Shown here: positions 11,586 to 47,726 of the stretch, in pieces
How positions within the stretch are numbered: the first letter of the stretch is position 1
Layout of the letters: every line of letters starts with the position of its first letter
DNA from: Candidatus Enterousia sp.
GTDB lineage: Bacteria > Pseudomonadota > Alphaproteobacteria > Rs-D84
DNA: 64,000 nt
Direction of reading: 5' to 3'
Assembly: GCA_045613315.1 (NCBI GenBank)
Contig: JAZLAV010000007.1
Coordinates: 1,785-65,784 of the forward strand
Translations under genes and position numbers: made by a program
Notes under the pieces: generated by a model
Database searches by the model: none
The model's input: the letters and a program-made list of their open reading frames with translations, nothing else
Told to the model about the DNA's origin: nothing

Positions 11586-12509
11586 ATGAAAAGATGTCCG
11601 TTTTTTGGTATTTGTGGTGGATGTAAATATGATTTTACATCGGCCGATTATCACGAACAAAAATTGTCCGTGTTGCGCGATTTACCGGTAATGGATAATC
11701 CCCGGTGGGTCGATGCGGGAACGCGTCGCCGTGGGGATTTTTGCTTTGCCGGGAATCAGTTTGGTTTATTCGAAACGCGGTCCAAAAACATTGTACCGGT
11801 GCGCAACTGTCCAAATATGGTACCGGAAATAAATGCGATTTTGCCACGCGTGGCAACGTTGCCGTGGGGCGCGTCGGGGTCTTGTTTAATTACCGCATGT
11901 GAAAACGGAATTGATATTGTGATAAATGCCGATGTGCCGTATTTTACGCCCGAATTCAAATCGGCGGCGTCGCAGGTCGGCGCGATTCGCGTTGTGTGGA
12001 ACGATAAAACAGTTGTCCAATTTGCCCTGCCAATAATCAAATTTGATGATGTTGCGGTGGATTATCCACCAAATGCGTTTTTACAACCCGGTCGCCAGGG
12101 CGAATCGATATTGCGCGAAATGGTTGTTGATGCGGTTGGCCAATCTGGACATGTTGCAGATTTGTTTTGTGGCCTGGGCAGTTTTACATTTGCAACGGGT
12201 GCCGATGGATTTGATATTGTTGGGGCGGGGGTCAAACGCGATTTGTTCGCGCATCCGTTAACCGTCGGGATGCTGAAAAAATATGATTGTGTGATAATGG
12301 ATCCGCCTCGCGCGGGCGCATTGGCCCAGTGTCGTGAATTGGTTAAATCGGATGTTCCACGCATTGTATATGTTTCGTGTAATCCGCAAACATTTGTGCG
12401 TGATATGAACATATTGGTGCGTGGTGGGTATAAGATGTGTAAACTGGTTCCAGTTGACCAATTTGTTGGCAGTGCCCATTGGGAATTATTTTCTGTATTT
12501 GATAAATAA
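11586..12509 (+). CDS. RumA/TrmA-family RNA (uracil-5)-methyltransferase
   Basis: N-terminal Fe-S cysteines CPFFGICGGCKY, SAM-fold motifs DLFCGLGSF and VIMDPPRAG, and catalytic YVSCNPQT. Confidence 0.8.
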   Translation: MKRCPFFGICGGCKYDFTSADYHEQKLSVLRDLPVMDNPRWVDAGTRRRGDFCFAGNQFGLFETRSKNIVPVRNCPNMVPEINAILPRVATLPWGASGSCLITACENGIDIVINADVPYFTPEFKSAASQVGAIRVVWNDKTVVQFALPIIKFDDVAVDYPPNAFLQPGRQGESILREMVVDAVGQSGHVADLFCGLGSFTFATGADGFDIVGAGVKRDLFAHPLTVGMLKKYDCVIMDPPRAGALAQCRELVKSDVPRIVYVSCNPQTFVRDMNILVRGGYKMCKLVPVDQFVGSAHWELFSVFDK

Positions 12510-12539
12510 AAAAACGCCGCCGTTTCCGGCGGTGTTTTC
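12507..12539. terminator. bidirectional intrinsic terminator
   Basis: ACGCCGCCG-TTTC-CGGCGGTGT stem with an A-run before and a T-run after. It serves the methyltransferase gene (+) and the sRNA candidate (-). Confidence 0.75.
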
Positions 12540-12680
12540 CGAATGCTCTTGAAAGGAAGGAAAGGAGAAAAAGAAATAGAGCATTCTTAACTTGTGTGGG
12601 GCCCAGAGCTCAGAGGAGAGAGAATGTAGGAGGGAGTCTGAATCCCTGAACCCCGTGTCGTTGGGTTTAACCCCTTGGAC
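12510..12680 (-). ncRNA. candidate small RNA (about 170 nt) with anti-Shine-Dalgarno tracts
   Basis: Minus-strand promoter TTGACA (12715-12710), 17-nt spacer, TATATT (12692-12687), and the terminator at 12507-12539. No ORF. It has a GAAUGCUCU/AGAGCAUUC stem with a C/U-rich loop plus CUCCCUCCU and CUCUCCUCU tracts. Confidence 0.5.
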
Positions 12681-12882
12681 AGTTATAATATAAGACAACA
12701 AAAGTTATTTGTCAAGTATTTTGTCAAAAATATTTTTTGGGTGGGTTTTTGTTGCTGCGTTTTTGTGAAAAATGCCGAAAATTCAATATGTTCCTAGGAA
12801 ATGGTGCCTGTTGCGAAACGGGGGGTGTTGGCATAAAATCGTTGGTGAATAAAAAATTTTTTGGCAAAACGGGGGGGACAAA

Positions 12883-13128
12883 ATGACACATGACGAAGTA
12901 TGGCGCGCCATAGAACGATTCGCAACGGAACACGGGATGACTTGTTCGGGGTTGGCAAAATGCAGCGGGTTGGACCCAACAACATTTAATCGCAGTAAAC
13001 GTTGGTCCCGCGCCGGCCAGCCACGTTGGCCATCGACCAACAGTATTTCCAAGATTTTGGCGTCAACGGGATCTTCTATACGCGATTTTACCAAATATAT
13101 TGATATGCCACCGCCCGAACACGAATAA
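12883..13128 (+). CDS. HTH DNA-binding protein resembling the N-terminal domain of S24 (CI/LexA-like) phage repressors, without a peptidase domain
   Basis: The pattern VWRAIERFATEHGMTCSGLAKCSGLDPTTFNRSKR...RWPSTNSISKILASTGSS is typical of alphaproteobacterial prophage-repressor N-termini. At only 81 aa it has no S24 domain. Confidence 0.6.
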   Translation: MTHDEVWRAIERFATEHGMTCSGLAKCSGLDPTTFNRSKRWSRAGQPRWPSTNSISKILASTGSSIRDFTKYIDMPPPEHE

Positions 13129-13134
13129 ATTTAT

Positions 13135-13638
13135 ATGGTTGATATTATTTACCACAATGTTTGTATGTTGTGGTATTTTTTATGGACAACGCAAAATATA
13201 TACTTTATTCTGAACGGTATGTTAAAAGGGATTCGGGTTTATTCCGCCGACAATGTGTGGCGTAACATATTGCGTGATTTGGGCGCAACGGTGTTGGATG
13301 CGCCAACAAATACGGATGTGAACCTGGATTCGTTAAGTATAACGATGCCGATATCCCCATTGGATTTAAAGGCCGCACTTATTACGGCGGCGGACAATTC
13401 GCAAATTATTCGTGATATATTCGGCGCAAATGCACATTTGTCTTATTTGCACACGCAGATTGTTGCGCAACTTTATAAATCGGGCGGTATGGATACAACA
13501 CAACTGAAAACGTCGTTGGGATACAGTGCGGATGCCACAACACATACGGTTGATACGGCAATTTACCAATTGCGTAAAATGTACGGACACAATTTTATCG
13601 TTAATGAAAACGGGGTGTACAAGATTGGTAAATTATAG
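13135..13638 (+). CDS. OmpR/PhoB-type winged-helix DNA-binding protein with a non-receiver N-terminus
   Basis: The C-terminus THTVDTAIYQLRKMYGHNFIVNENGVYKI matches the trans_reg_C recognition helix and wing. The start is uncertain; the alternative is ATG 13219. Confidence 0.55.
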   Translation: MVDIIYHNVCMLWYFLWTTQNIYFILNGMLKGIRVYSADNVWRNILRDLGATVLDAPTNTDVNLDSLSITMPISPLDLKAALITAADNSQIIRDIFGANAHLSYLHTQIVAQLYKSGGMDTTQLKTSLGYSADATTHTVDTAIYQLRKMYGHNFIVNENGVYKIGKL

Positions 13639-14296
13639 GGTTGTTTCTTTTGATAAAATCCCCAGTACGCAAACATATGCGCACGATATGATTGCGGCGG
13701 GAATTGGCGCGGATCATGTTGTGGTTTTGGCGGATGCACAATCGGCTGGACGTGGTCGTTATCAACGCAAATGGGTTTCGCATCATGGTAATTTGTATGC
13801 AAGTTTTATATACGCATGTGAAGAACGTGACGCGCGGTTGGCATATTCGGTTGGCGTCGCGATTGCAGAAACGCTGATTTCGTTTGGTGTTCATGCAACA
13901 ATTAAATGGCCGAACGATATTTTGGTCGATGACAAGAAAATTTCTGGTACACTTATTGAATATTCTGGACGGTTTGTTGTTGTTGGAATTGGTATAAACA
14001 TAAAAACGAATCCCACGGTTCGGGCGTCGTATAAAACGACCAAAATGGATAACTTTGTATCCGTCACCCGGGACGAGGTGTTAAATAAACTTATGCGTAA
14101 TCTGGATCGGTGGCGCAACGCTGATTTTCGTGTCGTGCGTGCACGGTGGACCGAATTGGCAACGGGACTTAATCACAATGTAAAATATCAGGGCGAATCG
14201 GCCGAGCTGATCGGAATAAATGAAAATGGTGCACTTATATTGCGCCGAAAAAGCCGTTATTTATTGGTGTATGGCGATGAAATAATAATGGAATAG
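13604..14296 (+). CDS. birA: biotin-[acetyl-CoA-carboxylase] ligase (group I, no HTH)
   Basis: FDKIPSTQTYA, the signature GRGRYQRKWVS, and KWPNDILVDDKKISGTLIE. The start is uncertain between ATG 13604 and TTG 13625. Confidence 0.85.
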   Translation: MKTGCTRLVNYRVVSFDKIPSTQTYAHDMIAAGIGADHVVVLADAQSAGRGRYQRKWVSHHGNLYASFIYACEERDARLAYSVGVAIAETLISFGVHATIKWPNDILVDDKKISGTLIEYSGRFVVVGIGINIKTNPTVRASYKTTKMDNFVSVTRDEVLNKLMRNLDRWRNADFRVVRARWTELATGLNHNVKYQGESAELIGINENGALILRRKSRYLLVYGDEIIME

Positions 14297-14307
14297 AAAT
14301 ATACATC

Positions 14308-14336
14308 TTGACTTTTATGTCAATTTGTGATATTAT
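14308..14336 (+). promoter_or_regulatory. sigma70-type promoter of the phage-like operon
   Basis: TTGACT (14308-14313), 17-nt spacer, TATTAT (14331-14336). Confidence 0.6.
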
Positions 14337-14362
14337 GTGAGACATCAAAGATAGAGATTTTG

Positions 14363-14418
14363 TCCGCACGAGAGTGTGGATTTTTTAATTCCGCGACCCA
14401 TTATCGGGTCGCTTTTTT
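14363..14418 (+). terminator. two tandem intrinsic terminators in the operon leader
   Basis: Hairpin 1 is TCCGCAC-GAGA-GTGTGGA followed by TTTTTT (14363-14386). Hairpin 2 is GCGACCC-ATTATC-GGGTCGC followed by TTTTTT (14393-14418). Both lie between the promoter and the first RBS. Confidence 0.65.
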
Positions 14419-14445
14419 ATTTACCAATCCACAGGAGAAAGAATA

Positions 14446-14865
14446 ATGGAATTGAACATAATATCAAATCCAGATGTCACCCAATGTCCCGCGTATAAAA
14501 TTGCGCGCGTTATATATGCAGAAACATATATGCCAACATTACCAGCAGTCGAAGCGATGGCGTCAATGATTTCCAATATTGCCAAACAATCAAATCGTGA
14601 TGTTGTTGATGTCGTTGATGATGTTGATATATTCGGGGCCGTTGATTCGAAATCGCCGCGTCATAAATATATGAACGTTTCGGTATCGAACCGCGCGTTC
14701 CAGATGTGTGTGCGTGTTGCAAAACGTATGTTGCGTGGTGTGTTGCCGGATAAATGTTCCGGCGCAACGCGATTCCATCGGGCGGACGAATTGCCTGCGT
14801 GGGCGATGGCACGTGGATATATTGCCGATATTGATGGATTACTGTTTTACATAATGGGGGAATGA
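14446..14865 (+). CDS. cell-wall hydrolase (SleB/Hydrolase_2-like), putative endolysin
   Basis: ARVIYAET..., ...GATRFHRADELPAWA... and YIADIDGLLFY follow the SleB-type hydrolase pattern. RBS is AGGAGAAAG. Confidence 0.6.
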   Translation: MELNIISNPDVTQCPAYKIARVIYAETYMPTLPAVEAMASMISNIAKQSNRDVVDVVDDVDIFGAVDSKSPRHKYMNVSVSNRAFQMCVRVAKRMLRGVLPDKCSGATRFHRADELPAWAMARGYIADIDGLLFYIMGE

Positions 14866-15059
14866 TGCGGGGTGATTTTATTCGTGGCGGAATGTTGTCA
14901 GATAAAAAATCATATGTGATGTTTGGGGTCGGTGTATTATCCGCCATTGCATCATATTTGGTTGGCGACACCGATGTATTCGTTATGTGCCAGGCAATAT
15001 TTACATTGGCGGGTATGTATTTTATTCATAAATCTGATAATACAAACAAAGGGAAATGA
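14862..15059 (+). CDS. holin-like small membrane protein (2 TM)
   Basis: Its start overlaps the hydrolase stop (ATGA). Two hydrophobic segments, VMFGVGVLSAIASYLVG and VFVMCQAIFTLAGMYFI, and a charged C-terminus. Confidence 0.5.
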   Translation: MMRGDFIRGGMLSDKKSYVMFGVGVLSAIASYLVGDTDVFVMCQAIFTLAGMYFIHKSDNTNKGK

Positions 15060-15060
15060 T

Positions 15061-15717
15061 ATGGAAAAAATACCAGAAAAGTTTTTGAACGGTGATGGTA
15101 CACTTAATTCAGATTCGTTATTAAAATCATATAATGAATTGGAAAAGAAAATTGGAACAATGGTGTCCGTGCCAAATTCTGAATCAGATGACGCGACACG
15201 TATGCGGTTTAATCGCGCCATTGGCGTTCCAGATGATACGGCACAATATCCAACCAACGATATGTTTGATGACGAATCGGTTCGACAAAAATTTCGTGAA
15301 ATCGGATTAACCTGTCCACAAGTTGAGCAAATATACAAAATTGCGAACGAATATTTATTACCGCTGTTATCAGATTTATTTGCAATGCAAAATGAAACAA
15401 ATGCATACCAAGAATTGAAAAATTTTTTCGGGTCCACTGAAAAAATGAATGACGCATTACATGCCATAGATGCGTTCGGAAATAAATTTTTACCACACGA
15501 TGCATTTGATGTGTTGTGTTCTACACCTGCCGGAATCCAAGGCGTGTACAAGATGATGCAATCGATGGAACCACATGTTGAAACACAAAAAAATGAAAAC
15601 GAAAATTTAACAGATAATGATTTACGACGTATGATGCGCGATCCAAAATATTGGCGTGACAATGATCCAGAATATGTTCGCAAAATCGAAAATGGTTTTA
15701 AAAAATTGTATTCATAA
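15061..15717 (+). CDS. acidic scaffolding-like protein
   Basis: ATG lies 2 nt after the holin-like stop. The protein is acidic and predicted helical, and it sits before the capsid gene as T7 gp9 does. Confidence 0.45.
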   Translation: MEKIPEKFLNGDGTLNSDSLLKSYNELEKKIGTMVSVPNSESDDATRMRFNRAIGVPDDTAQYPTNDMFDDESVRQKFREIGLTCPQVEQIYKIANEYLLPLLSDLFAMQNETNAYQELKNFFGSTEKMNDALHAIDAFGNKFLPHDAFDVLCSTPAGIQGVYKMMQSMEPHVETQKNENENLTDNDLRRMMRDPKYWRDNDPEYVRKIENGFKKLYS

Positions 15718-15825: not shown

Positions 15826-16125
15826 ATGGCATTCACATTCTTGAAACCAGCTGCGAAAAAAACTGCTGCAAAGCCAGCGGCGAAACCGGCTGCAAAAAAA
15901 CCGGCTGCTAAAAAAGTAGCTGCAAAAAAACCAGCTGCAAAGAAACCAGTTGCAAAGAAACCAGTTGCAAAAAAACCGGTTGCTAAAAAAGCAGTTGCAA
16001 AGAAACCAGTTGCTAAAAAAGTAGCTGCGAAAAAGCCAGTTGCAAAAAAAGCCGCGGTTAAAAAACCAGTTGCTAAAAAAGCAGTTGCGAAAAAACCATG
16101 CGCAAAATGTGCAAAGAAAAAATAA
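15826..16125 (+). CDS. Lys/Ala/Pro-rich histone H1-like basic protein
   Basis: RBS AAAGGAGAGAAGA. 99 aa made almost entirely of (P/V)AAKK-type repeats, ending [10 protein letters not shown]. Confidence 0.7.
15841..16110 (+). repeat. coding tandem repeat (about 15-nt units, AAGAAACCAGTTGCA-like)
   Basis: Visible repetition of GCAAAGAAACCAGTT / GCTAAAAAAGCAGTT units encoding the [10 protein letters not shown] repeats. Confidence 0.8.
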
Positions 16126-16155
16126 TAAATACCACAATTGTGGTTGTTATTTTCG

Positions 16156-16179
16156 GGGCCGGTTTTCCGGCCCTTTTTT
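16156..16179 (+). terminator. intrinsic terminator
   Basis: GGGCCGG-TTTT-CCGGCCC followed by TTTTTT. Confidence 0.7.
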
Positions 16180-16365
16180 GTTAAAACAATATCAGTCAGA
16201 TTTGCGCAGGTCTGACTGATACTGTTGTTGGACAATCCCGTTTGGGGACCCGTTTGAATTTTTGTTTGTGGCACAGTTTTTCTGTACAACCAAAAACAAA
16301 ATATAAATTGTCGTGCGATGTTTAATCGCACTTTTTCATTTTATAAACACAAAAGGGGTGTATCT

Positions 16366-17181
16366 ATGTCAGTTAGCATAGACCAAGTCTTCGTAAAACA
16401 ATTCGAAGCAGATGTTCATTTGGCTTATCAGCAAATGGGCACAAAATTGCGTTCGTCTGTACGCAGCAAATCGGGCGTCGTTGGCGCAACAACAACCTTT
16501 CAGAAGGTTGGCAAAGGAATCGCCAGTACAAAATCACGTCATGGCATTGTTCCGGTTATGAATCTTAATCATGAACCGGTGGAATGCACATTGGTTGATT
16601 ACTATGCGGGTGATTGGGTTGATGCGTTGGATGAATTGAAAACAAATGTCGATGAACGTCGTGTTGTTGCCGCCGCCGGCGCGTATGCGTTGGGACGCAA
16701 AACAGACGAATTGATTGTTGATGCAATGAAAACAACAACAACCAATGTCGGCAGTTATTCCAATGCTTTTTCCAAAGCGTCGATTTTGGAAGCCATCGAA
16801 CAACTGAATGAAAACGATGTGCCGGATGATGGTCGCCGTTTCGCGGTTGTTGGTGTGCAACAGTGGAATATATTGTTGGGGTTGGATGAATTCGTGTCGG
16901 CGGATTATGTTGGTGATACGCCACTTGCCACCGGGTTCGAATCGAAAAAATGGTTGGGCATTACATGGTTAATGTACAACGGTTTGCCGTTAAGTGGCAC
17001 GCAACGCGATTGCTTTATTTATCACGCGTCCAGTATCGGACACGCCTGTGGCCAAGAAGTCAAAACAGACATTTCGTGGCACGGTGAACGCGCAGCACAC
17101 TTTATCAGCAACAGCATGTCCCAAGGCGCCGTGTTAATAGACAACGACGGTATTGTGCGGGTCAAATGTAAAGAATCATAA
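16366..17181 (+). CDS. major capsid protein, T7 gp10-like
   Basis: RBS AAAGGGG. The blocks VFVKQFEADVHLAY...TFQKVG and VECTLVDYYAGDWVDALDELK...AAAGAYALGRKTDELIV parallel T7 gp10 as I recall it. Confidence 0.65.
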   Translation: MSVSIDQVFVKQFEADVHLAYQQMGTKLRSSVRSKSGVVGATTTFQKVGKGIASTKSRHGIVPVMNLNHEPVECTLVDYYAGDWVDALDELKTNVDERRVVAAAGAYALGRKTDELIVDAMKTTTTNVGSYSNAFSKASILEAIEQLNENDVPDDGRRFAVVGVQQWNILLGLDEFVSADYVGDTPLATGFESKKWLGITWLMYNGLPLSGTQRDCFIYHASSIGHACGQEVKTDISWHGERAAHFISNSMSQGAVLIDNDGIVRVKCKES

Positions 17182-17436: not shown

Positions 17437-17492
17437 AATCAGGGGGTGGCAAATCGCCGCCCCCGGTAATTATTGTAAAAAAAGGCGGGAAA

Positions 17493-31357: not shown

Positions 31358-32344
31358 TTACATGAATTGCAATATATTTTTTAAATCTGATACAAACTTG
31401 TCATGATCATTTTCAATAACAGATCTGTAATATGCAAAATCATCAATTTTTGTGTCATAGTTTTTCATACAATCGCGAATTTGATTGATAATAGCATGAA
31501 TGTTGTTTTCTGTGACATCAAACTTGTATTCTGGTTTTATTGGTACATCACCATAAAATACCGCAGAACCACGGTTCCCAACAATAATAATATTGCCCTG
31601 GATGGCGGCTTCGCGGGGGAAACGATCTTTGCCTGGATGATTACCAAAATCTATATATACTTTACTTTCTGCACAAAGCTCTCGAACCTGTTCTGGGGTC
31701 ATGTTTTCTAATGGACGAAAAGTCAAATCTGGTGCCGATTCAATTAACTTTTTTGTAAAATCAAACCCTTTCTTTGGGTTGTATATAACGATGTCTTTTC
31801 GTTTATTGGATTTTAAATAGGCTTTTGTGGCAAAAAAATCATCCCTTAGATAATCCGCAAGGAATGCTTTGTTGCGAACGTGTTTGCGTGCTAAAAAGTC
31901 CATGGCGTATTCAGATTGTGCTAAATGTAAAATATTTTGATCGGATAAACTGATTATGTGTGGATTCTTTTTGTGTGTAATAAATGCCCAAATACGTTTT
32001 TTAAGATTTATCTTTGGTAAATGTTCAAAATAATTATCAACACTTAGCCACCAAAATACCCGTTGGGCAAATTTTACAGAGTTTAAAATATTTGCGAATA
32101 ATTCTGGCACAATGACAACATTGTGTGGCGCATCTTGTATATCAAATACATACGGCACATTAAATATTTTGAACCGTTCGCCAACAACATCTTTTTGATT
32201 TTTGACATCTGTATAATACATAACTGCGTTTACATTTAATTTGCGCATTTCATAGGCCAAGACGTGTAATGCCTCGGTCCCGCCCGTTTGAAACGAAGCG
32301 GGACATGCGATATAAACGATTGTATTATCATAAATCTGTATCAT
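31358..32344 (-). CDS. glycosyltransferase (GT-B fold, group-1-like)
   Basis: The C-terminal IDFGNHPGKDRFPREAAIQGNIIIVGNRGS resembles the GT4 E-x7-E region. 328 aa. Confidence 0.5.
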   Translation of the reverse strand: MIQIYDNTIVYIACPASFQTGGTEALHVLAYEMRKLNVNAVMYYTDVKNQKDVVGERFKIFNVPYVFDIQDAPHNVVIVPELFANILNSVKFAQRVFWWLSVDNYFEHLPKINLKKRIWAFITHKKNPHIISLSDQNILHLAQSEYAMDFLARKHVRNKAFLADYLRDDFFATKAYLKSNKRKDIVIYNPKKGFDFTKKLIESAPDLTFRPLENMTPEQVRELCAESKVYIDFGNHPGKDRFPREAAIQGNIIIVGNRGSAVFYGDVPIKPEYKFDVTENNIHAIINQIRDCMKNYDTKIDDFAYYRSVIENDHDKFVSDLKNILQFM

Positions 32345-32345
32345 C

Positions 32346-32903
32346 TTATTTTCTCTTGGCTTTTAAGACAGGTATAACCCCAAACAATTTATAACTTGTG
32401 TTGCTCTCGGTTTGTTTTATTGTCATTAATGGAATAAAATTAAACAAATAAATCTTATGCTTGGACGTGGGTTTGGAATCTGTTTGCATTTGTTTTTCTA
32501 TCCAGCGTAATCTTGCTTCGTTTTCGTAATTAATGTCCGAACAAATAGAAATAGGATAATTTAAGTTCAAAAACTTTTGATAGTAAGCCTTGATTTGTGG
32601 CATCATATCTTTGTTTTCTTCTCTATGAGAATTATACAGCAAGTGTACCATCAATGCTTTTGGACAAACAACGATGTTTGGTTTATGTTCTTTACACCAC
32701 ATGTGCATTCTGTGTTCGTCTTCATGTGGGGATGCGTTTTCTACAACATTCCAGAATCCTTTTTTAAACAGAATACAGTTAATAGACATTCGTTGTTCGG
32801 GATCAAAGCAGAAATCCGCTTGGTTGCTGCATTTGTTAACATATTCTGGCACATTTAATGTGGTGTGCATGTGCAACCATCTTGCAATATACGGGTAACG
32901 CAT
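32346..32903 (-). CDS. hypothetical protein (possible glycosyltransferase-related, possibly truncated)
   Basis: Lies 1 nt upstream of the GT gene. The longer ORF (to 32996) overlaps the next gene, so I used Met32. No firm family. Confidence 0.35.
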   Translation of the reverse strand: MRYPYIARWLHMHTTLNVPEYVNKCSNQADFCFDPEQRMSINCILFKKGFWNVVENASPHEDEHRMHMWCKEHKPNIVVCPKALMVHLLYNSHREENKDMMPQIKAYYQKFLNLNYPISICSDINYENEARLRWIEKQMQTDSKPTSKHKIYLFNFIPLMTIKQTESNTSYKLFGVIPVLKAKRK

Positions 32904-32955
32904 AATTGTGCCGGCACCCCCACGGATACCGGTTATAAATTGTATGGAACATAAA

Positions 32956-33744
32956 TTAAAATGCGTATGGTTTTGCGTTGAAATGTTCGCGCGCACCCGT
33001 CACATTTGCCGCCGCATCGTTCGCATGGCGACCATTGTCAACCAATTCCAATGCGCCAAAATATGCCGTCATCATCGGATCATAGGCGTTGTTGGATGTT
33101 AACCACCGATCCGTGCCGGAATTCGGGGTGCCGTATTTATCAACCACACCCGACCAAAATGTTAAAATCTTTTTTTGACGTTGGTCCGCGAATTTGGCCG
33201 CCGTGCCTTCGGTTTCATTGGCGTCATTGTTATATTCCACACGCCAAACACGGTTGTCGGTCGCGTTGCTGGTAAAAAATACGTCAATTGTTTCGCCCGT
33301 CAATTCCCGCACCAGATGATATTCCGATACATACATTAAACCACGGTTTTGTGCCAGGCTGCGAATACACTGTTCCAATTGGGCGGGAACAAAAATGTTT
33401 TGCTGTCTGCATTCGTAATCCAAATTATACCGCCAATCGGTCGGAATTGTATATACAACCGCATCAATCGCACGTGGTGCATAAATTCCGCCATCCGCAA
33501 ACAATGTGCGTACATCGTCAAATGACATTCCCAACATAATTCCGGCAATGTCGAACGATTCCACCGCGCGTGGCCATGCACCCGCGTTTATCGAATATGA
33601 ATCGGTCGTAATGTCGGGATCCACACTGTCGGCGATGGCAAAATTGTCAAAATCAAACGGGTCGTCATATTCGGCACCATTCGCCACGGGCGCAAATGCC
33701 GCAAACACAAACAATAAAAATATCAACCGTTTAATCATTTGCAA
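32956..33744 (-). CDS. secreted protein, function unknown
   Basis: Signal peptide MQMIKRLIFLLFVFAAFAPVANGA. It overlaps the upstream gene by 14 nt, which suggests an operon. Confidence 0.55.
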   Translation of the reverse strand: MQMIKRLIFLLFVFAAFAPVANGAEYDDPFDFDNFAIADSVDPDITTDSYSINAGAWPRAVESFDIAGIMLGMSFDDVRTLFADGGIYAPRAIDAVVYTIPTDWRYNLDYECRQQNIFVPAQLEQCIRSLAQNRGLMYVSEYHLVRELTGETIDVFFTSNATDNRVWRVEYNNDANETEGTAAKFADQRQKKILTFWSGVVDKYGTPNSGTDRWLTSNNAYDPMMTAYFGALELVDNGRHANDAAANVTGAREHFNAKPYAF

Positions 33745-34402
33745 TTCGTTCCAAATCAGTCACCAAAAACCGGAATATAACCGCGGGGTCACATTCGGTT
33801 TCAAACCTATTATAACCGCATTTTAAATATTTTCCAATATCTAATGCGGCGCCCCCCAATGTGTCGCGCAGCCCCGGTTCAAATAAAACATTCATTTGTA
33901 ATATGCCACGCGTTATTTGGGGCATCGCCGACATATCATTTGGAACGGTCCATGTTTTTAACACATATGGCACAATCCAATAATCCCCGTCCATATATAT
34001 TTCACCGTTAATATCAACGGTACGCATCATATTGTTTTCGGCCATCGATTTTATACCCGCGGCTTCGCCCCGAATCCACGCGTCAAAAACCGCCGGTGTG
34101 GACATACGGGCCAATGTCGAACGTGACGTACAACGATTTTCAATGTTGTTCGGGTCCGGAACCGCATAGAAATATTCCGTCACATATTTTTTTATCAGCA
34201 TTTCACGCATTGTTGTTTCGTTCATATCCGACAATCGTACCGGATTGCCCGGGCGCATAACCGACAATTCGTTTGTCTGGAAAAAATAGGTTTCAATGTT
34301 TTCCATGGCACCGGTGTCATAAATCGCAGATGCCAAAAACAGCATCGCCATCGTCAGAATCAGCAACAAAATTCCCGCAAAAAATGTGATGATTCTTCTC
34401 AT
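33731..34402 (-). CDS. bitopic membrane protein, VirB8-like architecture (putative)
   Basis: N-terminal TM ITFFAGILLLILTMAMLFLA plus a periplasmic domain of about 190 aa. It is in tandem with, and overlaps by 4 nt, a similarly built gene. Confidence 0.35.
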   Translation of the reverse strand: MRRIITFFAGILLLILTMAMLFLASAIYDTGAMENIETYFFQTNELSVMRPGNPVRLSDMNETTMREMLIKKYVTEYFYAVPDPNNIENRCTSRSTLARMSTPAVFDAWIRGEAAGIKSMAENNMMRTVDINGEIYMDGDYWIVPYVLKTWTVPNDMSAMPQITRGILQMNVLFEPGLRDTLGGAALDIGKYLKCGYNRFETECDPAVIFRFLVTDLERIAND

Positions 34403-35097
34403 TGGCTGATCCGGTATGTGTTAAAGTTGTTGATGTAATACCCCCGCGTCATGGGATAGTATTTCATATTGCGCGCCACCGTGGCATATCCAACAATGTC
34501 CATGGCCGCCACCCCACCATCGGTCAAAATTGTTAACTGGATGCGCCACGTGCCCCCGTCGGACGAAACGGCACCAATCGGATCGATGCGTATGGATTCG
34601 GTCACGGGAAACCATGTCGCGCCCGCAGATTCCATCGCGATATAATTCGGCAAAACACTTTCTGAAAAACGATAAAACAAATCGTCGCCCGACATACAGT
34701 ATATCGCACAATGACGCGTGTCGCCCGTGTCACCCGTACATTGTTCGCGTGCACATTTTGTTTCCCAAACGGCAACATTTCGATTGTGATTGCGCGAAAT
34801 ACCAAACCAATTTCGTGTGAATCGCCAAACCAACGATTGTTGGAATAACTGGGCATCGGTCATTTCCAGTGTCGGTGTTTCCGTGCCCGCCATAACAATT
34901 CGCCATTGGTCGTTAATTCCGTCCGTCGCCAGTATATATGGTTCGACACGTGCGGAACGAATTGTCCATATTAACATCGCGCAAAGAAAGATTATTACAA
35001 GAAAAGCAGACATAATTCCAATACCCATCGCACGGGAAACAGCAATGCTTTTCCCCGCCGGAAATGTCGGTGTATTAAAATCGTCTGGATAATTCAA
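34399..35097 (-). CDS. bitopic membrane protein, VirB8-like (putative)
   Basis: Short cytoplasmic N-terminus, TM GIGIMSAFLVIIFLCAMLIW, then EPYILATDGIN..., LFQQSLVWRFTRNWFGI and C-terminal RGYYINNFNTYRI, paralleling the VirB8 PYVV.VD / YV..RE.Y / NPLGF.V..YR pattern. Confidence 0.4.
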   Translation of the reverse strand: MNYPDDFNTPTFPAGKSIAVSRAMGIGIMSAFLVIIFLCAMLIWTIRSARVEPYILATDGINDQWRIVMAGTETPTLEMTDAQLFQQSLVWRFTRNWFGISRNHNRNVAVWETKCAREQCTGDTGDTRHCAIYCMSGDDLFYRFSESVLPNYIAMESAGATWFPVTESIRIDPIGAVSSDGGTWRIQLTILTDGGVAAMDIVGYATVARNMKYYPMTRGYYINNFNTYRISQ

Positions 35098-35127
35098 TGT
35101 CGTCCCCCCAACAACAATGTTTTAAAA

Positions 35128-35274
35128 CTAGGCCTGGTAAACCATAATGCACGCGCAAGGGCTTAATTTCAGTTCATTATTGTCGTATCCAACGCCAACC
35201 GGTTCACGGTCGTAAACCTGGCCACAGCCGGCCAAAGCCAACGCAACAAATACGCCCAGAATCACTTTTTTCAT
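35128..35274 (-). CDS. small lipoprotein (48 aa), VirB7-like (putative)
   Basis: Too short for the ORF track. Strong RBS AAGGGGGAAATGATT. It reads MKKVILGVFVALALAGCGQVYDREPVGVGYDNNELKLSPCACIMVYQA, with a lipobox and a K-x-SPC motif as in ComB7/VirB7-type lipoproteins (recalled). Confidence 0.4.
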   Translation of the reverse strand: MKKVILGVFVALALAGCGQVYDREPVGVGYDNNELKLSPCACIMVYQA

Positions 35275-35406
35275 AATCATTTCCCCCTTAGATTATTTTG
35301 ATTATAAAAAAATTACGCGCGCCGTGTCAAATGATTATATGGCATAAAAAATTCCAGGGCGGCCAAATCGTCCGTCCTGGAATTTGGTTTTAATAAAACA
35401 ATGTTT

Positions 35407-36660
35407 TTATTTGTCCGATGGGTTTGCAAATGAATAATTCATTTTCAAATGATCGGCATTGTATGTCCCGTTCATAATGGCCAATGTGTCTTCCAAAATA
35501 ACCAATTCTTCGTTGGTGGCAATCATAAACAGTTTTATACGGCTGTCGGTGGTGCTGATTTCTGCTTCGGCGACCCCTTTGCGACCAACCGCGGCGTCGT
35601 TTTTCGTGGTATCCAATTTGATTCCCATTGGTTCCAGGTTTTCCAAACAACGTTGACGGATATATGGATCGTTTTCACCACCGCCGGCGGTAAACACAAT
35701 TGCGTCAACATTACCGTCCAATGTTGCCATATATGCGCCAATCGTTTGGCGAACACTTAAAATCTGTTTTTCCAACGCCATACGGCATTTTTCGTCAGTT
35801 GACATATTGCCTTCGACATCGCGCAGGTCGGAAAATTTGCACATGCCCAACAGTCCCGATTCCTTGTTCAGGTGGGTTGTTGCCTGGGCCGAGGTCAGCC
35901 CCAATTTATCCATCGCATATAACACGGCGGACGTATCCAAATTGCCCGGGCGAGTTCCCATAACCAAACCGGTAATCGGTGTGAACCCCATGGATGTATC
36001 AAAACATTTACCGTTTTTAATTGCCGCGACCGATGCGCCCGAACCCAAATGCACGGTAATCAAATTGCATTCGGATGCCGGTTTGTTCAGCATAACCGCC
36101 GCGCGTTTGGAAACATACAGGTGTGATGTGCCATGATAACCGTATTTGCGGACTTTCAGTTGTGTATACCATGCTTCTGGCACAGCATAACGGAAAACGT
36201 GTTCCGGCATTGTTTGATGGAACGCGGTATCAAAAACCGCCACCTGTTTGGCGTTTGGCATCATTTGCAATGCGGTGTTTATGCCCGCCAACGCCGGTGG
36301 ATTGTGCAACGGTGCGATTTCTGCATATTCACTTATTTTGCGGACAACATCATCGGTAATTTCGCACGAAGACGTCAATTCCGCCCCACCCAGAAGAACG
36401 CGGTGCCCAACACCCCGAATTTCGTTGGTGTCGATGGACGCTTCGCGTAATAATTTCATAACTTCGCTTAATGCTTCGCCATGGTCGCGCATCGGAACGG
36501 TGCGTTCGACTTTGTGTCCGTCAGGATATTTTTGAGAAATTACCGAATCCGGCAATTTGATTTTTTCGGCCAAACCACTTAATACCACGTCCCGTGTGTC
36601 GGCGTCAAACAATTTGTATTTAAGCGATGAAGAACCGCAATTTAACGACAAAACATACAT
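35407..36660 (-). CDS. ackA: acetate kinase
   Basis: MYVLSLNCGSSSLKYKLF, HRVLLGG, YGYHGTSH and EELVI. The start is at the internal Met after AAAAGGAAAGCAA. Confidence 0.92.
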   Translation of the reverse strand: MYVLSLNCGSSSLKYKLFDADTRDVVLSGLAEKIKLPDSVISQKYPDGHKVERTVPMRDHGEALSEVMKLLREASIDTNEIRGVGHRVLLGGAELTSSCEITDDVVRKISEYAEIAPLHNPPALAGINTALQMMPNAKQVAVFDTAFHQTMPEHVFRYAVPEAWYTQLKVRKYGYHGTSHLYVSKRAAVMLNKPASECNLITVHLGSGASVAAIKNGKCFDTSMGFTPITGLVMGTRPGNLDTSAVLYAMDKLGLTSAQATTHLNKESGLLGMCKFSDLRDVEGNMSTDEKCRMALEKQILSVRQTIGAYMATLDGNVDAIVFTAGGGENDPYIRQRCLENLEPMGIKLDTTKNDAAVGRKGVAEAEISTTDSRIKLFMIATNEELVILEDTLAIMNGTYNADHLKMNYSFANPSDK

Positions 36661-36722
36661 TTGCTTTCCTTTTTTATATTTATTTACGACGCGGTCCAGG
36701 TTAGCACCAGTTGTTTTCATTT

Positions 36723-37295
36723 TCAACAATAAATGCGGATTTTTAACCGCCATTCATCATTGGCGACATTTGTTTTTACCCCTGTTGATTTGTGAACCAC
36801 CCAAAACGTCCCGCCACCAATGAAAAGTCGCATATGTAATCCATTGTCGTCGATATATGTGTAATACATTGGGCGTGTATATTCGCCAATGCCGAATGCG
36901 GTTACTTCGTCGCCGGCGGCATATCCTGCGGCATCGGTTTGGCATACCAAAATCGGTCGAATAATAACCGGGTCTGTTGTTATGTTGTCAAAAACATATT
37001 CTGCGTATGCGGTGCCATGTATGGTGACGGGAGTACTGGTATATTCATTGAAAGGGGCGGGGGCAACGCGCGTAACAATTTCCGCCCATTTTGTATCCGA
37101 TACGGAATCGATATCAAAAGGTGTTGTGGTATCTGGTATTTCATCGGCGCGCGCCAACGCGACCCCACCCAGTGTTGCACCATCGTGGACACGAATTGTT
37201 TTTGCAGTTGTATCATAGGTTATTTCACCGACCAATCCGGTAAAATTATCGTTTTGTGCGCCTGTGCCGCGCCGAATTTGTAAAACTCGTGACAT
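36723..37295 (-). CDS. phage tail-fibre / receptor-binding protein with an Mtd-N-type N-terminal domain
   Basis: MSRVLQIRRGTGAQNDNFTGLVGEITYDTTAKTIRVHDGATLGG followed by a beta-rich domain of about 145 aa. It is a paralogue of 30871..31125. Confidence 0.6.
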   Translation of the reverse strand: MSRVLQIRRGTGAQNDNFTGLVGEITYDTTAKTIRVHDGATLGGVALARADEIPDTTTPFDIDSVSDTKWAEIVTRVAPAPFNEYTSTPVTIHGTAYAEYVFDNITTDPVIIRPILVCQTDAAGYAAGDEVTAFGIGEYTRPMYYTYIDDNGLHMRLFIGGGTFWVVHKSTGVKTNVANDEWRLKIRIYC

Positions 37296-37338
37296 ATGTT
37301 ATCCTTTGGTTTAACAAGGTTTGATTAAATGTTTGGAA

Positions 37339-37407
37339 ATAAAAAATGGCGCCGAACAATCGGTGCCAAAGTGGTTGCATTATACCATAAAATCAGGTAA
37401 AAATCAA
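37339..37407 (-). promoter_or_regulatory. promoter followed by a terminator-like leader hairpin, upstream of the fibre gene
   Basis: On the minus strand: TTGATT (37407-37402), 17-nt spacer, TATAAT (37384-37379), then GGCACCGA-TTGT-TCGGCGCC (37367-37348) followed by ATTTTTTATTT. Confidence 0.55.
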
Positions 37408-39788
37408 GCGGCATATGAATAACCGGATAAATAATCGTTGATGATTGTGCACCGTTGGGAATTAAATGCCCCCTGGGCCGATTTTTTACTGCGTGGCAAC
37501 CAATTATACATTTGCCCCATGTGTGAATCGCGTCCGGTTTCCAACATGTCCCAATATGCCATCAGTTCCCTGTATTTGTCCTGGTGTTTTTGGTCCCATT
37601 GGGCCAGTTCGTTATTCAGTTTTGTTTTGTGTTGATTTAATTCCTGGATTCGTTCGGATGCGTCGTGCCATTGTTGCAGTTCTTGGGCCTGGGAATCGGC
37701 GTTGCGTTTGTCGGTTTCGTATTGGGTAACCATATTTTGTTGCGTGGCCCAGTTTGGTGACGTTGTTATGGCGTTCAATTCGTTTGTATAATTGTTCAAA
37801 TTGGCCGTCGCATCATTTAATTGTTGCGTTATTTCCTGGATTTGTGTCCAAATTTCAACCTGGCGCGCATTTCTTGCCGCCGGTGGCATACCATTATATG
37901 TGGCGGGATTACGAAGGGCCTGTTCCAAACTATTTTTTTCGGTTTGTAATGTTGTTATATCATTATGCAATTGCGGTAATGTGTGATTGTTAAGTTCGTC
38001 GAACCGTTGCACATTTGTATTTGCCGTTTGGAAAGCAGGGTCGTTGGCGGTGTTAGCCAATTGTTGTTGGATTCGATCATTCCCAGATTTTAATGTCCCG
38101 TAATTCGCATCGGTAATCGGATTGGTGCGGGTTTGATTTATATTTACCTGGATATTGCGTTGGTTTGTGATTTCAGTATTTGCATTGGTGATTTCGGTAT
38201 TCACATACCGTTCATAATTTGCGCGGTCCGTGGTATTTTGTGTTGCCCATGCATTTTGTGCGCTGGCAATGCGGCCACGTTGACCATTAAATTTGCTGCC
38301 CGACAAACGAATTTCGTTACCAATAATTGTGATGCCGTACCCGATGCCCATAAATGCGGCCTTGATACTTTTGTCCAAAGCGTTGCTGACAAATTGAACA
38401 CCCTGGTTTTTGTTCCACGACAATTTGCCGTCTGAAAACAGTGTTATATCCGATTTGGCCATTGCATCCATTGTTTTGCTGGTGGTGGCGCCATATTTTA
38501 TGACGGATAACACTTCCATTGTGGTTTTGGCTTCGTCTATTTTGCCTTCGCGAACCGCCTTCATAATAATTTCGCCAACAATGGCACGCATTTGACGACC
38601 GTTTTGTAACGCGCCGGCGAATGCCCGTTTCATTGTGCCCGCCATTTCGTTCAGTGTCTTTTCAAACCATTCGAAATGTTTGGTTGCCGTTGGCGATTTA
38701 TATAATAAACTTTTTTTGATATCCGCGGATTTATCCAAAACCCCCTTGATACCATCGGTTGGTTTAATCTTGGCACTGTTGATGGCGCCGACGATGTTTT
38801 CGGCGTTTTTGGAAAAGTACAGGCGATCGCCGTGGAATTTAAGATATTTATCCAATAAATTATCGTATGTGTCATCCGCCCATTTTGATATCTGTTGCCA
38901 TGGGGTTAATTCGTCGTAGCGTTTCGGCGGGACATAATCATCGCTGTTTTTATCATCGTATTTTAATTTTTCGCGTGCGGCGGTTATGCGTCCCGATATT
39001 TTGCCGTCGTCATAGTTTCTGAATACATTAAAAATCTTGTCCTTTTTATACAGGACATTAAGCATCGTTTGGTGGTTGCGTTTAAAATTGTCCAACTTTG
39101 TCGGGTCAATGGTGGTGTCGGCAAATGCGTTGTTCGCAATATCCGACAGGTCTATTCCACTAAACCATCCCGCAACCGTGGGATCTTCGGTGCATTTCCA
39201 CGACAAAAAACCGATAATTTGTATCAGTTGCGCCTGAAACTTGGGGTCTGAATTATATTTTTTGGACCGCAATCCAGATTTTAAATCAGAAAACGATGGT
39301 TCGTTGTATCCGCCCTGGCGCAGGACGTATTCTAATTGCGAATTGGCACCCAACACATTGTTTATGGCGTCCAGTTGTGTGTCGTATCCGGGGGCAACCT
39401 GGGCGTTGGAAAAAAGATGTGTCGCGGACGCACCAAAATATTCGTTGATAAAACCACGGGCATCATCATTTATTTCTTCGTCGCCACGCGCCAATGACGC
39501 AGCCATGCCACGTAATGCCTTTTGATATGCCTTGAAAAGCTTTGCCCATTCGTCGTCGGTTAAATGATAATTCCCGTTGGGGTCCATTGGGTCGGGCAAA
39601 TCGTTCTGGACGTATCGGCCGGTCCCGTCGTCGTGCATAAGTTTTTTCTTCCAATCCTTCATGTTGCCACGAAAATCGTCAGATTTTACATATACATCAT
39701 ATTGGGCGCGAATTTCAGCCGGCATCGCGTTGAAACGCAGCTGCATATAATATTGCAATAAAAAATCTTTCATACCGACGTCTGCCAT
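37404..39788 (-). CDS. large (794 aa) protein with a Q/N-rich coiled-coil C-terminal half, function unknown (candidate secreted effector)
   Basis: No signal peptide or TM. An internal short repeat NTEITNANTEITNQ. Long heptad-like Q/N/T-rich stretch. No family recognised. Confidence 0.6.
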   Translation of the reverse strand: MADVGMKDFLLQYYMQLRFNAMPAEIRAQYDVYVKSDDFRGNMKDWKKKLMHDDGTGRYVQNDLPDPMDPNGNYHLTDDEWAKLFKAYQKALRGMAASLARGDEEINDDARGFINEYFGASATHLFSNAQVAPGYDTQLDAINNVLGANSQLEYVLRQGGYNEPSFSDLKSGLRSKKYNSDPKFQAQLIQIIGFLSWKCTEDPTVAGWFSGIDLSDIANNAFADTTIDPTKLDNFKRNHQTMLNVLYKKDKIFNVFRNYDDGKISGRITAAREKLKYDDKNSDDYVPPKRYDELTPWQQISKWADDTYDNLLDKYLKFHGDRLYFSKNAENIVGAINSAKIKPTDGIKGVLDKSADIKKSLLYKSPTATKHFEWFEKTLNEMAGTMKRAFAGALQNGRQMRAIVGEIIMKAVREGKIDEAKTTMEVLSVIKYGATTSKTMDAMAKSDITLFSDGKLSWNKNQGVQFVSNALDKSIKAAFMGIGYGITIIGNEIRLSGSKFNGQRGRIASAQNAWATQNTTDRANYERYVNTEITNANTEITNQRNIQVNINQTRTNPITDANYGTLKSGNDRIQQQLANTANDPAFQTANTNVQRFDELNNHTLPQLHNDITTLQTEKNSLEQALRNPATYNGMPPAARNARQVEIWTQIQEITQQLNDATANLNNYTNELNAITTSPNWATQQNMVTQYETDKRNADSQAQELQQWHDASERIQELNQHKTKLNNELAQWDQKHQDKYRELMAYWDMLETGRDSHMGQMYNWLPRSKKSAQGAFNSQRCTIINDYLSGYSYAA

Positions 39789-40694: not shown

Positions 40695-40771
40695 GGGACC
40701 ATAGCTCAGTTGGCTAGAGCAACTGACTTTTAATCAGTGGGTCCAGGGTTCAAGTCCCTGTGGTCCCACCA
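40695..40771 (+). tRNA. tRNA-Lys (anticodon UUU)
   Basis: GGGACCATAGCTCAGTTGGCTAGAGCAACTGACTTTTAATCAGTGGGTCCAGGGTTCAAGTCCCTGTGGTCCCACCA folds as a cloverleaf with a CTTTTAA anticodon loop and encoded CCA. A terminator hairpin TGTACGCCCG...CGGGCGTACA follows. Confidence 0.93.
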
Positions 40772-45998: not shown

Positions 45999-46403
45999 TT
46001 AAAATGTTGATGTGCGGTATGCAAAATCACGAACGCGATTATCTTCGTCAAACTTTACAATGATGGTCAGTGTGCGTTGTGTACTGGTGTATTTATGATT
46101 GTCTGTACCGGCCCCCATAACCAGCAACCACACACCTGCACCCGAATTTGATGACTGGACAGTTGTGGAAACACGGTCATAAACCCATGTCTCACGGCGT
46201 TTCGCATCCGTTGTGACCATGTTTGGGGAACCCAAAACTTCAATTACTTCGGCGGATGTCATACCGATTTTTATTTCGCGTTGTGCCATCGCAATGGTCA
46301 TATTGTCCGCCACAACCGGATCGGTGTTGCGTACGCATGCGGTCATTGTTGACATTGTTATGGTCAGCGCAATTAACATGGGTAATTTCGCAAATATTTT
46401 CAT
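45999..46403 (-). CDS. BamE/SmpA-OmlA-like lipoprotein
   Basis: Lipobox MSTMTAC. IKIGMTSAEVIEVLGSPN matches the BamE-type domain. Confidence 0.5.
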   Translation of the reverse strand: MKIFAKLPMLIALTITMSTMTACVRNTDPVVADNMTIAMAQREIKIGMTSAEVIEVLGSPNMVTTDAKRRETWVYDRVSTTVQSSNSGAGVWLLVMGAGTDNHKYTSTQRTLTIIVKFDEDNRVRDFAYRTSTF

Positions 46404-46550
46404 TTTTTGTCCTTTCGTTGTGTGGGTATTATATTACGCACGAATATAAAAATCAAAGGATTATTTACGGGGGCAAAAATGACAAAACGTCAAACGAACG
46501 TGGTGTCGGTGCTAGATAAAAATACCCCCACCAATCGGTGGGGTTTGGTA

Positions 46551-47726
46551 TTATAATGTTTTTGTTTGGCGCATCGGTATAACCCAACAAACAAATATTA
46601 TGGCGGCACATATTGCGATTGCATATGGCATATGCGTGTATGCAAAACCGCCCAAGGCAACTGTTAAGCCCGACGCTATTATCGGGGTTAAAAATTGTGA
46701 TAGATATAATGCAGCCGATAATAGTGGCATTACGGTCATCATCGCATTTTTACCGGCGACAGCCGAAGCGCTGGATATTATAAATGGTATTCCCAATCCG
46801 TTTGCAAATCCGATAAGTGCAGAACCAATAATAACTGTTGTCCATCCTGGCGAAGCCATCAATAAACAGTATCCGCACAGAAACATCATTGGCGCTATAA
46901 ATCTTACAGTATGCGCCATACGTGATTTAACCCGCACATAACAAAGCCCACCAATAAACGCAATTAAATCCATAGATGCCATTATTATCGGAATATATTT
47001 TGCATCGATAACATCATCAGAAGCGGTAATAATTGCAAAATTACATGGATATATAAAGAACACAAACATTAACAAAAACATTGCGACTATAAATTTATAG
47101 TATTTTTTTATCTGGGCAAAGATTGACTTGTGTTCGCTGTTGATTGCAGGTTCGTTTGAAATCATTCTTTCATTTGGCATAAATATTGCACACAAAATAA
47201 TACTGATAAGCCCCATCAGGTATACCAGAAAACTGGCGCGCCAACTGATTGTGCTTAACATTCCCGACAGTAATGTAGCGACAACGCCACCCATCTGGTT
47301 CATTGCCGAAGATAAACCCAATAATTTATCGTGCTTATCACGGGTGTAATAGTATGTCAGCAACCCCGTGGACATAGGCATAATAATTCCAACACCAATA
47401 CCGACCAATGCCCGAGCAAACAAAACCATATAAATATTGCTGAAAGCACCAGCCGCACATCCACCAATTGTATACAATAACAACCCAATCATAACCAGGG
47501 TTCGTGTTTTGAATATCGTGCATAATTTTGGAAACACCAGATTTGTTAAAACGATGAACAGTGCCGGGATACTGATAATCAGTTGAACCAATAATTTTGG
47601 AACATCGGCAAAATATTCAGATATAACATTTAATGCCGGTGCAATCGCCGCGCCCGCCATAACCGTCAATAACGATAGCGACAAAATCGAAAGTGTGAAT
47701 AAATGTTTTCTGTCTTTATGGTTCAT
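46551..47726 (-). CDS. MFS transporter
   Basis: About 12 hydrophobic segments. The start is taken at MNHKDRKHLF. Confidence 0.7.
   Translation of the reverse strand: MNHKDRKHLFTLSILSLSLLTVMAGAAIAPALNVISEYFADVPKLLVQLIISIPALFIVLTNLVFPKLCTIFKTRTLVMIGLLLYTIGGCAAGAFSNIYMVLFARALVGIGVGIIMPMSTGLLTYYYTRDKHDKLLGLSSAMNQMGGVVATLLSGMLSTISWRASFLVYLMGLISIILCAIFMPNERMISNEPAINSEHKSIFAQIKKYYKFIVAMFLLMFVFFIYPCNFAIITASDDVIDAKYIPIIMASMDLIAFIGGLCYVRVKSRMAHTVRFIAPMMFLCGYCLLMASPGWTTVIIGSALIGFANGLGIPFIISSASAVAGKNAMMTVMPLLSAALYLSQFLTPIIASGLTVALGGFAYTHMPYAIAICAAIIFVCWVIPMRQTKTL

Follow-up and report, generated by a model that had tools for sequence, protein, structure and literature searches.

We analysed a 64000-nt stretch of DNA from Candidatus Enterousia sp. 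(GenBank assembly GCA_045613315.1, contig JAZLAV010000007.1, positions 1785–65784; hereafter the window) and found that the spacer between birA and an endolysin-like hydrolase gene, the first gene of a T7-like structural cluster, carries a near-consensus sigma70 promoter followed by two intrinsic terminators, t1 and t2. The promoter and both hairpin-plus-T-run elements were present in all 68 orthologous birA–hydrolase spacers (the window and 67 further loci), and we are confident that this leader is a functional promoter with a tandem-terminator gate. By analogy with lambda Q, with BrrG of the gene transfer agent (GTA) BaGTA and with Caulobacter GafZ, the gate could well be opened by processive antitermination, a proposal to which we give about even weight. 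The arrangement resembles lambda PR'-tR' and the BaGTA leader, but no Q-family protein was found in the window.

Architecture and conservation of the leader

A sequence-only reading of this stretch had placed a promoter, TTGACT-N17-TATTAT, at 14308–14336, then two hairpins each with a T6 run, then the ribosome-binding site (RBS) and the ATG at 14446, and each of these elements was recovered where it had been described, all on the forward strand. The near-consensus sigma70 promoter (C-TTGACT-TT, 17-bp spacer, TGTG and TATTAT; 14307–14336) was read directly from the sequence, with the −35 hexamer TTGACT at 14308–14313, the extended −10 element TGTG at 14326–14329 and the −10 hexamer TATTAT at 14331–14336. 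It is preceded at 14297–14306 by an A+T-rich, UP-element-like tract, an AAAATAT-like block at −12 to −5 from the −35 hexamer that is conserved across the 68 loci. Column counts in the aligned loci defined a start-site block, CAT(A/C)AA(A/C)AG, at 14343–14351, and its distance to the −10 hexamer makes the A of CAT at 14344 the most likely transcription start. A purine-rich tract with a −10-like hexamer (GAGATT at 14354–14359 or GATTTT at 14356–14361) occupies 14353–14361. Terminator t1 (14362–14386) consists of the hairpin TCCGCAC/GAGA/GTGTGGA at 14363–14380, with a 7–8-bp stem and a GAGA loop, and T6 at 14381–14386, at approximately +20 to +43 of the predicted transcript. Terminator t2 (14393–14418) consists of the hairpin GCGACCC/ATTATC/GGGTCGC at 14393–14412, with a 7-bp stem (six GC pairs) and a 6-nt loop, and T6 at 14413–14418, at approximately +50 to +75. 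The RBS (AGGAG, 14433–14437) and the ATG at 14446 of the first operon gene (together 14433–14448) follow.

A consensus scan picked up the promoter (10/12 plus TG) and both terminators. Across the region, however, the generic promoter/terminator scan was weakly enriched over shuffled sequence (44 against 35.8 expected, and 34 against 19.2), and thus a promoter or terminator match in a single sequence proves little. The full promoter pattern had a single occurrence in the window, against none in 100 shuffles. The 105-nt leader RNA had a folding energy of −30 kcal/mol, against −18.0±3.3 kcal/mol for shuffled sequences (z = −3.7), and both the minimum free energy and the centroid structures contained the t1 and t2 hairpins; no alternative antiterminator pairing was present in the predicted leader fold. 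A scan of the window against Rfam 15 matched tRNAs only, with nothing significant at 12400–14500.

The leader was then sought upstream of orthologous clusters, and the 68 spacers were aligned and anchored on the −35 hexamer. The 17-bp promoter spacer was kept in 68/68 loci, and the invariant positions were TTGAC, T18, T20, G21, T23, A24 and T28, together with T-R-T-G and TA..AT. A C stood directly 5' of the −35 hexamer in 63/68 loci, with the AAAATAT-like tract farther upstream. Five to six bases after the −10 hexamer the conserved block C-A-T-(A/C)-A-A-(A/C)-A-G began, followed by a purine-rich stretch and then by T-rich bases. The position of t1 was fixed, its stem starting at +18 to +22 in nearly all loci, and the stem sequence of hairpin 1 (YCCRCA) was more conserved than that of hairpin 2. 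Although t2 was found in all 68 loci and was always GC-rich (median −12.9 kcal/mol) with a T-run after it, its sequence was not conserved: the 53 t2 stems scored had 43 different 5'-arm hexamers. By an RNAfold-based rule, two terminators lay 3' of the −10 hexamer in 62/68 loci, and the remaining six had a second GC hairpin with T5.

The hairpins were conserved through compensatory change. RNAalifold returned six pairs for hairpin 1, all six with double substitutions (one pair was CG in 26 sequences, AU in 22, GC in five and UA in three), and over the terminator structure 10/10 pairs carried double changes. On the MAFFT alignment 87.3% of cells were paired, compared with 72.3% after shuffling, and the covariation score was 0.488 compared with 0.241, in both cases reached by 0/500 shuffles; the score fell to 0.13 or below when the partners were slid by 1–3 columns. 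A chance juxtaposition without function would draw on the abundance of promoter-like and terminator-like matches in A+T-rich DNA. Order, spacing and structure were nevertheless kept in 68/68 loci while the t2 sequence turned over, so that chance is practically refuted.

An unbiased scan of metagenome contigs with the promoter plus CATAAACAG gave 18 matches, eight being unrelated promoters without hairpins and ten being leaders of the order Rs-D84, and all ten of the latter carried t1, t2 and the downstream hydrolase gene. In a viral collection the bare promoter design proved generic in unrelated phages, and among the matches the double terminator was confined to Enterousia-type loci. A deeper relative (L133, capsid 74% identical) had the promoter and one terminator only. 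The leader was absent from free phage-like relatives (L136–L160, capsid ~60% identical), in which the structural operon begins beside a divergent S24 repressor.

Opening of the gate and the search for an antiterminator

Features of a Q-type module can be read in the leader, namely a sigma70 promoter that looks activator-independent from its sequence, TTGACT-17-TGTGATATTAT, invariant across the loci, and terminators placed before the late genes. In the mechanism that we propose, this promoter of maximal strength (UP-like tract, TTGACT, 17-bp spacer, TRTG extended −10 and TATTAT) would fire without an activator, starting near 14344, and almost every RNA polymerase would halt at t1, giving an RNA of ~44 nt, or at the back-up t2 (~75 nt). 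The endolysin, holin-like, scaffold, capsid and tail genes would therefore be silent by default, and since the first genes are of lysis type, tight silencing makes sense. Expression would follow only once RNA polymerase had been made terminator-resistant near the promoter, probably during a pause on the conserved +1 to +18 segment, and the modified polymerase would then pass t1, t2 and the further conserved terminators within the operon. If sigma70 re-engaged at GATTTT (14356–14361), polymerase would pause at approximately +26 to +29, a position estimated by extrapolation from lambda and phage 82 spacing, before hairpin 1 forms, and the factor might load there.

The layout of the leader bears on this proposal in two ways. 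The order of promoter, terminators and RBS was fixed and the gap from t2 to the RBS was 10–30 nt in the loci, too short for another promoter, and thus transcription of the operon must pass t1 and t2. Moreover, as t2 has no conserved sequence, a factor that recognizes each terminator separately is unlikely, which favours a processive mechanism. Processive antitermination appears to us the most coherent and economical explanation of the design, the antiterminator itself being putative.

The Q-type part of the sequence-only reading fared less well than the architecture: the latter is real and conserved, but no Q-like, GafZ-like or NusG-paralogue gene was found in the window. Several results weigh against antitermination of this type. 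As that reading had already noted, no Q-like gene was obvious; Pfam scans of ~65 of the larger open reading frames (ORFs) of the window returned no Q, AlpA, GafZ or NusG-paralogue family, and no Q-family (lambda Q, Q21/Q82 or BrrG), GafZ-like or RfaH-like protein was seen in the 64 kb. The structural models of two neighbouring proteins were equally unhelpful, that of p139 being a generic winged helix without a Q-like match in the PDB and that of p219 having no structural match there. The sigma70 holoenzyme contacts the UP element and the −35, extended −10 and −10 elements, and every conserved promoter position can be explained by such contacts, with no separate Q-binding element discernible. 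The −10-like element was moderately conserved (NANNNT at +13 to +18 in 69% of the 68 loci, and two bases upstream, at +11 to +16, in 59%), and may instead represent an A/T tract pairing with the T-run. In addition, no second copy of the leader precedes the terL-C/portal genes at 24.6 kb, and a possible third particle locus at 31–40 kb has no such leader.

We weighed three other functional readings. Promoter and t1, with t2 as back-up, might constitute a small RNA (sRNA) gene yielding an abundant RNA of ~44 or 75 nt whose conserved single-stranded 5' end (AUMAAMAG...) acts as a seed on targets in trans, the operon being expressed by leak or from elsewhere; we consider this unlikely. The element does have its own strong promoter and its own terminator, and seed-type sRNAs classically show this layout, in which a covarying hairpin comes after a conserved 5' block that is unpaired. 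Nevertheless, wherever the full leader was found, in the 68 genome loci as in the ten metagenome leaders, the hydrolase gene accompanied it, the leader matched no Rfam family, neither a second copy nor a complementary conserved site was found within the loci, 44 nt is unusually short for an sRNA, and this reading would deprive the operon of any promoter. Alternatively, the promoter might be under the control of a repressor, with the p81 remnant, p139 and the double-helix-turn-helix protein as candidates, and without a dedicated antiterminator. In this form t1 and t2 would be constitutive attenuators that limit leaky and noisy expression of a lethal lysis operon and also end birA transcripts, and derepressed expression would rely on a small read-through fraction; we judge this improbable to a similar degree. 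Three conserved DNA-binding proteins do flank the cluster, the conserved block overlaps the start site and is a possible operator location, and birA in the window lacks its own terminator before the promoter, so that t1 and t2 end its transcripts. In many loci, however, birA is followed by a separate hairpin ahead of the promoter, and yet both t1 and t2 are kept, and at least four serial terminators after a maximal promoter would leave very little capsid and tail expression.

Nor was an operator apparent. No dyad or repeated operator was found at or around the promoter, and neither the motif nor its complement was enriched elsewhere within the loci. An inverted repeat around the −10 hexamer (GATGxx...xxCATC) was rejected, its complementarity being no better than expected from column composition, and so was the CATMAAMAG block as a repeated operator, as it was enriched at the leader alone within the loci. 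A local, non-processive antitermination or a very small riboswitch, in which a protein or ligand on the +1 to +19 RNA and hairpin 1 blocks t1, would fit the better sequence conservation of the hairpin 1 stem (YCCRCA) than of hairpin 2. We regard it as very unlikely, because t2 and the internal terminators, which lack conserved sequence, would still stop transcription; the fold also showed no alternative antiterminator pairing and there was no Rfam match.

For processive antitermination, possible candidate factors include regulators next to the cluster. The DNA-binding candidates pointed out earlier, at 12883–13128, 13135–13638 and 21955–22962, did turn out to be helix-turn-helix (HTH) or winged-helix proteins, but none is Q-like. 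The first, p81 (12883–13128, forward strand), is a Cro/CI-type HTH protein with weak matches to HTH_26 and to PDB 3b7h. It is the most conserved protein of the neighbourhood, at 77–91% identity except in the three most divergent loci. In phage-like relatives (contiguous terL, capsid ~60% identical) its homologues form the N-domain of 207–210-residue repressors with an S24 peptidase domain, and thus on sequence grounds p81 is a truncated CI/LexA-like phage repressor that has lost its self-cleavage domain. Examples of such S24 repressors in phage-like elements are L144 1–633 and L138 656–1279, both on the reverse strand.

The second candidate, p139, is a winged-helix protein coupled to birA. Its ORF (13135–13638, forward strand) has its true start at 13219, which gives the 139 residues found in the homologues (13219–13638), and the AlphaFold2 model (predicted local distance difference test score, pLDDT, of 88) showed a C-terminal OmpR/PhoB-like winged helix by weak matches. 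The third, hth348 (21955–23001, reverse strand), is a 348-residue protein with two XRE HTH domains, and beside it on the same strand lies the all-alpha protein p219 (21265–21924; model pLDDT 85). As Q-like proteins all four neighbours were rejected, p81 being an XRE HTH, p139 a winged helix, p219 all-alpha and hth348 a double XRE HTH protein. No homologue of p139, p219 or the double-HTH protein was found in the phage-like relatives, and they are therefore plausible domestication-specific regulators, none of which resembles a known antiterminator.

A broader form of the proposal, which we put forward tentatively and think somewhat doubtful, holds that an undescribed T7-type, GTA-like particle system is fixed throughout the order Rs-D84 and has this leader as its master switch. 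The switch would be opened by a new type of processive antiterminator, unlike Q, GafZ or NusG (p139, p219 and the double-HTH protein being possible candidates), or else by a factor-independent mechanism in the 45-nt promoter-proximal RNA. Dispersed loci, the split of the terminase, the structured RNA leader of the capsid gene and a histone-like protein as cargo would be further features of such a system.

The particle cluster and its surroundings

The window is part of a bacterial chromosome, as it encodes LpxI, BirA, DnaB, PriA, GAPDH, AckA and tRNAs, and the host is a gut alphaproteobacterium with a reduced genome (Ca. Enterousia, order Rs-D84). Genomes of this order measure 0.75–1.0 Mb (PMC12306168). 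The cluster starts, all on the forward strand, with the endolysin-like hydrolase gene (14446–14865; phrog_938 endolysin, E = 1.3e-6), which has an orthologue in all loci, and with a 65-residue membrane protein (14862–15059) that is probably holin-like, judging from its position and hydrophobic stretch. A T7-type scaffold protein (15061–15717; PF05396), a Lys/Ala/Pro-rich histone-H1-like protein (15826–16125; PF07382) and the major capsid protein (16366–17181; PF19821, E = 1e-70) follow. The probable real start of the capsid protein is M17 of the ORF at 16318–17181, as the orthologue alignments begin at residue 17. A small capsid-associated protein is encoded 3' of the capsid gene, before the tail tubular genes, and the segment 17493–21264 encodes the tail tubular proteins A and B, p116, a fibre N-terminal domain and the N-terminal half of the terminase large subunit.

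Capsid relatives were found in at least 567 GTDB species genomes. The best 80 were all metagenome-assembled genomes of gut or rumen Alphaproteobacteria, many of them named Candidatus Enterousia, and both birA and the hydrolase gene were present in 67 of these loci. In these 67 species-level genomes the order p81-p139-birA-[spacer]-hyd-small-scaffold-(histone-like)-capsid-tubA-tubB-p116-(fibre)-terL-N, followed by p219, HTH and dnaB, was syntenic at 45–90% amino-acid identity. Judged by its genes, the cluster is a fixed, vertically inherited, domesticated phage cluster that is GTA-like by genomics; it has been kept across dozens of species despite strong genome reduction, and the operon is therefore presumably useful to the host. 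Our literature search found no paper linking Rs-D84 or Enterousia to such a cluster, and a 2026 paper names FpGTA of Faecalibacterium as the first podovirus-like GTA-like element (PMC12946183).

Further terminators lie within the operon. The scan placed an internal terminator, t3, at 16155–16180, 3' of the histone-like gene, and a GC hairpin with a T-run was present in the scaffold–capsid interval of 62/70 loci. Another hairpin with a T-run (16313–16336) stands directly before the capsid RBS. After capsid/p76, in a position like that of T7 Tphi, the scan found a GC hairpin at 17442–17464; the hairpin of the capsid–tubA spacer was conserved, with a T-rich tail in 64/80 loci. All three are on the forward strand. 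The aligned spacer before the capsid gene contained no conserved −35/−10 pair, and no recognizable internal promoter was found in the operon.

The capsid gene also has a structured 5' leader (16181–16365, forward strand). It contains the palindrome TCAGTCAGA..GTCTGACTGA at 16190–16221, a long hairpin that was conserved in sequence, together with a GGAYAAUCC..GGACCC hairpin and a GGCGCA..UGCAUAACC helix. RNAalifold on 42 loci gave 23 pairs, 19 of them with compensatory changes, and there was no Rfam match. A GGCGC..GCAYAACC motif likewise precedes the capsid gene of L134 and perhaps those of L139 and L147. This leader is thus a candidate for a new cis-regulatory or processing RNA.

Several features of the neighbourhood deserve mention in their own right. 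The T7-type large terminase is split, with the N-terminal ATPase half at 20623–21264 and the C-terminal RNaseH-like nuclease half at approximately 24608–25430, both on the forward strand and encoded by separate ORFs 3.3 kb apart; the portal gene (25244–26689) follows the C-terminal half, and p219, the double-HTH gene and the replicative helicase gene dnaB lie between the halves on the opposite strand (21265–24583). This split was conserved in the orthologous loci, whereas terL is contiguous in the phage-like relatives. The histone-H1/HC2-like protein (15826–16125, 99 residues) was very variable in length and sequence between loci, and its gene was not present in the phage-like relatives; the protein may serve to condense DNA or be an internal component of the particle.

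Farther away, an unannotated gene run at 31358–39788 (reverse strand) includes a 190-residue protein with an Mtd_N/tail-protein N-terminal domain and a 794-residue protein without a family match, whose gene, at 39788, is preceded by a plain TTGAAA-17-TATAAT promoter lacking leader hairpins. The run may be a third particle locus for fibre or internal proteins, its link to the particle being one tail-like domain. The low-GC (35–39%) segment at 46000–64000 carries a tyrosine integrase (55703–56911), a GH108 lysozyme (49301–49789), two DUF488 genes and an AAA/DUF4143 ATPase, and is probably a separate integrated element near tRNA-Lys (40695–40771). Upstream of p81, on the reverse strand at 12510–12715, a near-consensus TTGACA-17-TATATT promoter (12715–12687) and a terminator (12532–12517) bracket ~170 nt without an ORF, a possible small RNA with sub-threshold Rfam matches only.

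Comparison with known antitermination systems

In lambda PR'-tR', as in the Q21 and Q82 systems, the lysis and morphogenesis genes lie behind a constitutive, near-consensus sigma70 promoter and an intrinsic terminator, so that by default a short RNA ending at the terminator is made; the initially transcribed region of lambda PR'-tR' contains a −10-like hexamer. The Enterousia leader shares the strong sigma70 promoter followed by terminators ahead of lysis and particle genes. In contrast with lambda, however, its terminators begin at approximately +20 rather than approximately +190 and form a tandem pair, no separate Q-binding element can be distinguished, the genes upstream are an HTH remnant, a winged-helix gene and birA rather than a Q-family gene, and the structural module is T7-like and not lambdoid. 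The put RNA of HK022 likewise places two stem-loops directly 3' of a phage promoter, but no U-runs follow these stems and they act against termination. Both hairpins of the present leader have canonical T6–T9 tails and are therefore terminators, unlike the put stems. AlpA is a small winged-helix/MerR-like DNA-binding protein that loads at a promoter, whereupon the terminators before lysis genes are bypassed; no AlpA family match was obtained here, and the similarity of p139 to such proteins is that of a generic winged helix.

AlpA of Pseudomonas aeruginosa has been cited as the antiterminator of a lysis locus together with the GTA of Caulobacter crescentus (CcGTA), in which GafZ, loaded at the promoter, lets RNA polymerase bypass the terminators of the cluster and GafY and IHF act as activators (PMC11150451). 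The CcGTA promoter needs activators and its terminator, made of 150-bp repeats, lies after the first gene, whereas the promoter described here looks activator-independent and has its terminators ahead of the first gene; a GafYZ homologue was not seen in the window. A close parallel is P_bgtA-K of BaGTA, a constitutive TTGACA-N17-TATCAT promoter with a required NANNNT just downstream, a leader terminator and a Q21-like processive antiterminator, BrrG (bioRxiv 10.1101/2024.11.20.624540). Like the present cluster, BaGTA is a domesticated phage cluster in an alphaproteobacterium with an N17 promoter and a leader terminator, and antitermination, established there, is proposed here. The BaGTA leader, however, is 864 nt long with one weak predicted terminator (−6 kcal/mol), compared with ~100 nt and two strong terminators in Enterousia, and no BrrG/Q21-like fold was found among the neighbours tested by modelling (p139 and p219).

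Outside these systems, two viral contigs from IMG/VR (L269, 3300045988_070690, and L285, 3300029845_000055) belong to an unrelated phage with the same generic strong promoter, in which a single hairpin with a T-run at approximately +13 is followed by the RBS of a gene. Promoter-proximal terminator gates may thus be more widespread in phages.

If the proposed mechanism is correct, the leader would offer a handle of ~110 bp on the control of a lethal particle operon of phage origin in an uncultured gut symbiont lineage with reduced genomes and, with no known antiterminator nearby, the gate may lead to a new one. It would also extend antitermination control of alphaproteobacterial GTAs, an emerging rule, to a third, unrelated domestication, of the T7-like, podovirus type. 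Compared with the known cases, the Enterousia gate differs in its much shorter leader (terminators at +20 and +50), its two tandem terminators, its T7-type module and its different host lineage.

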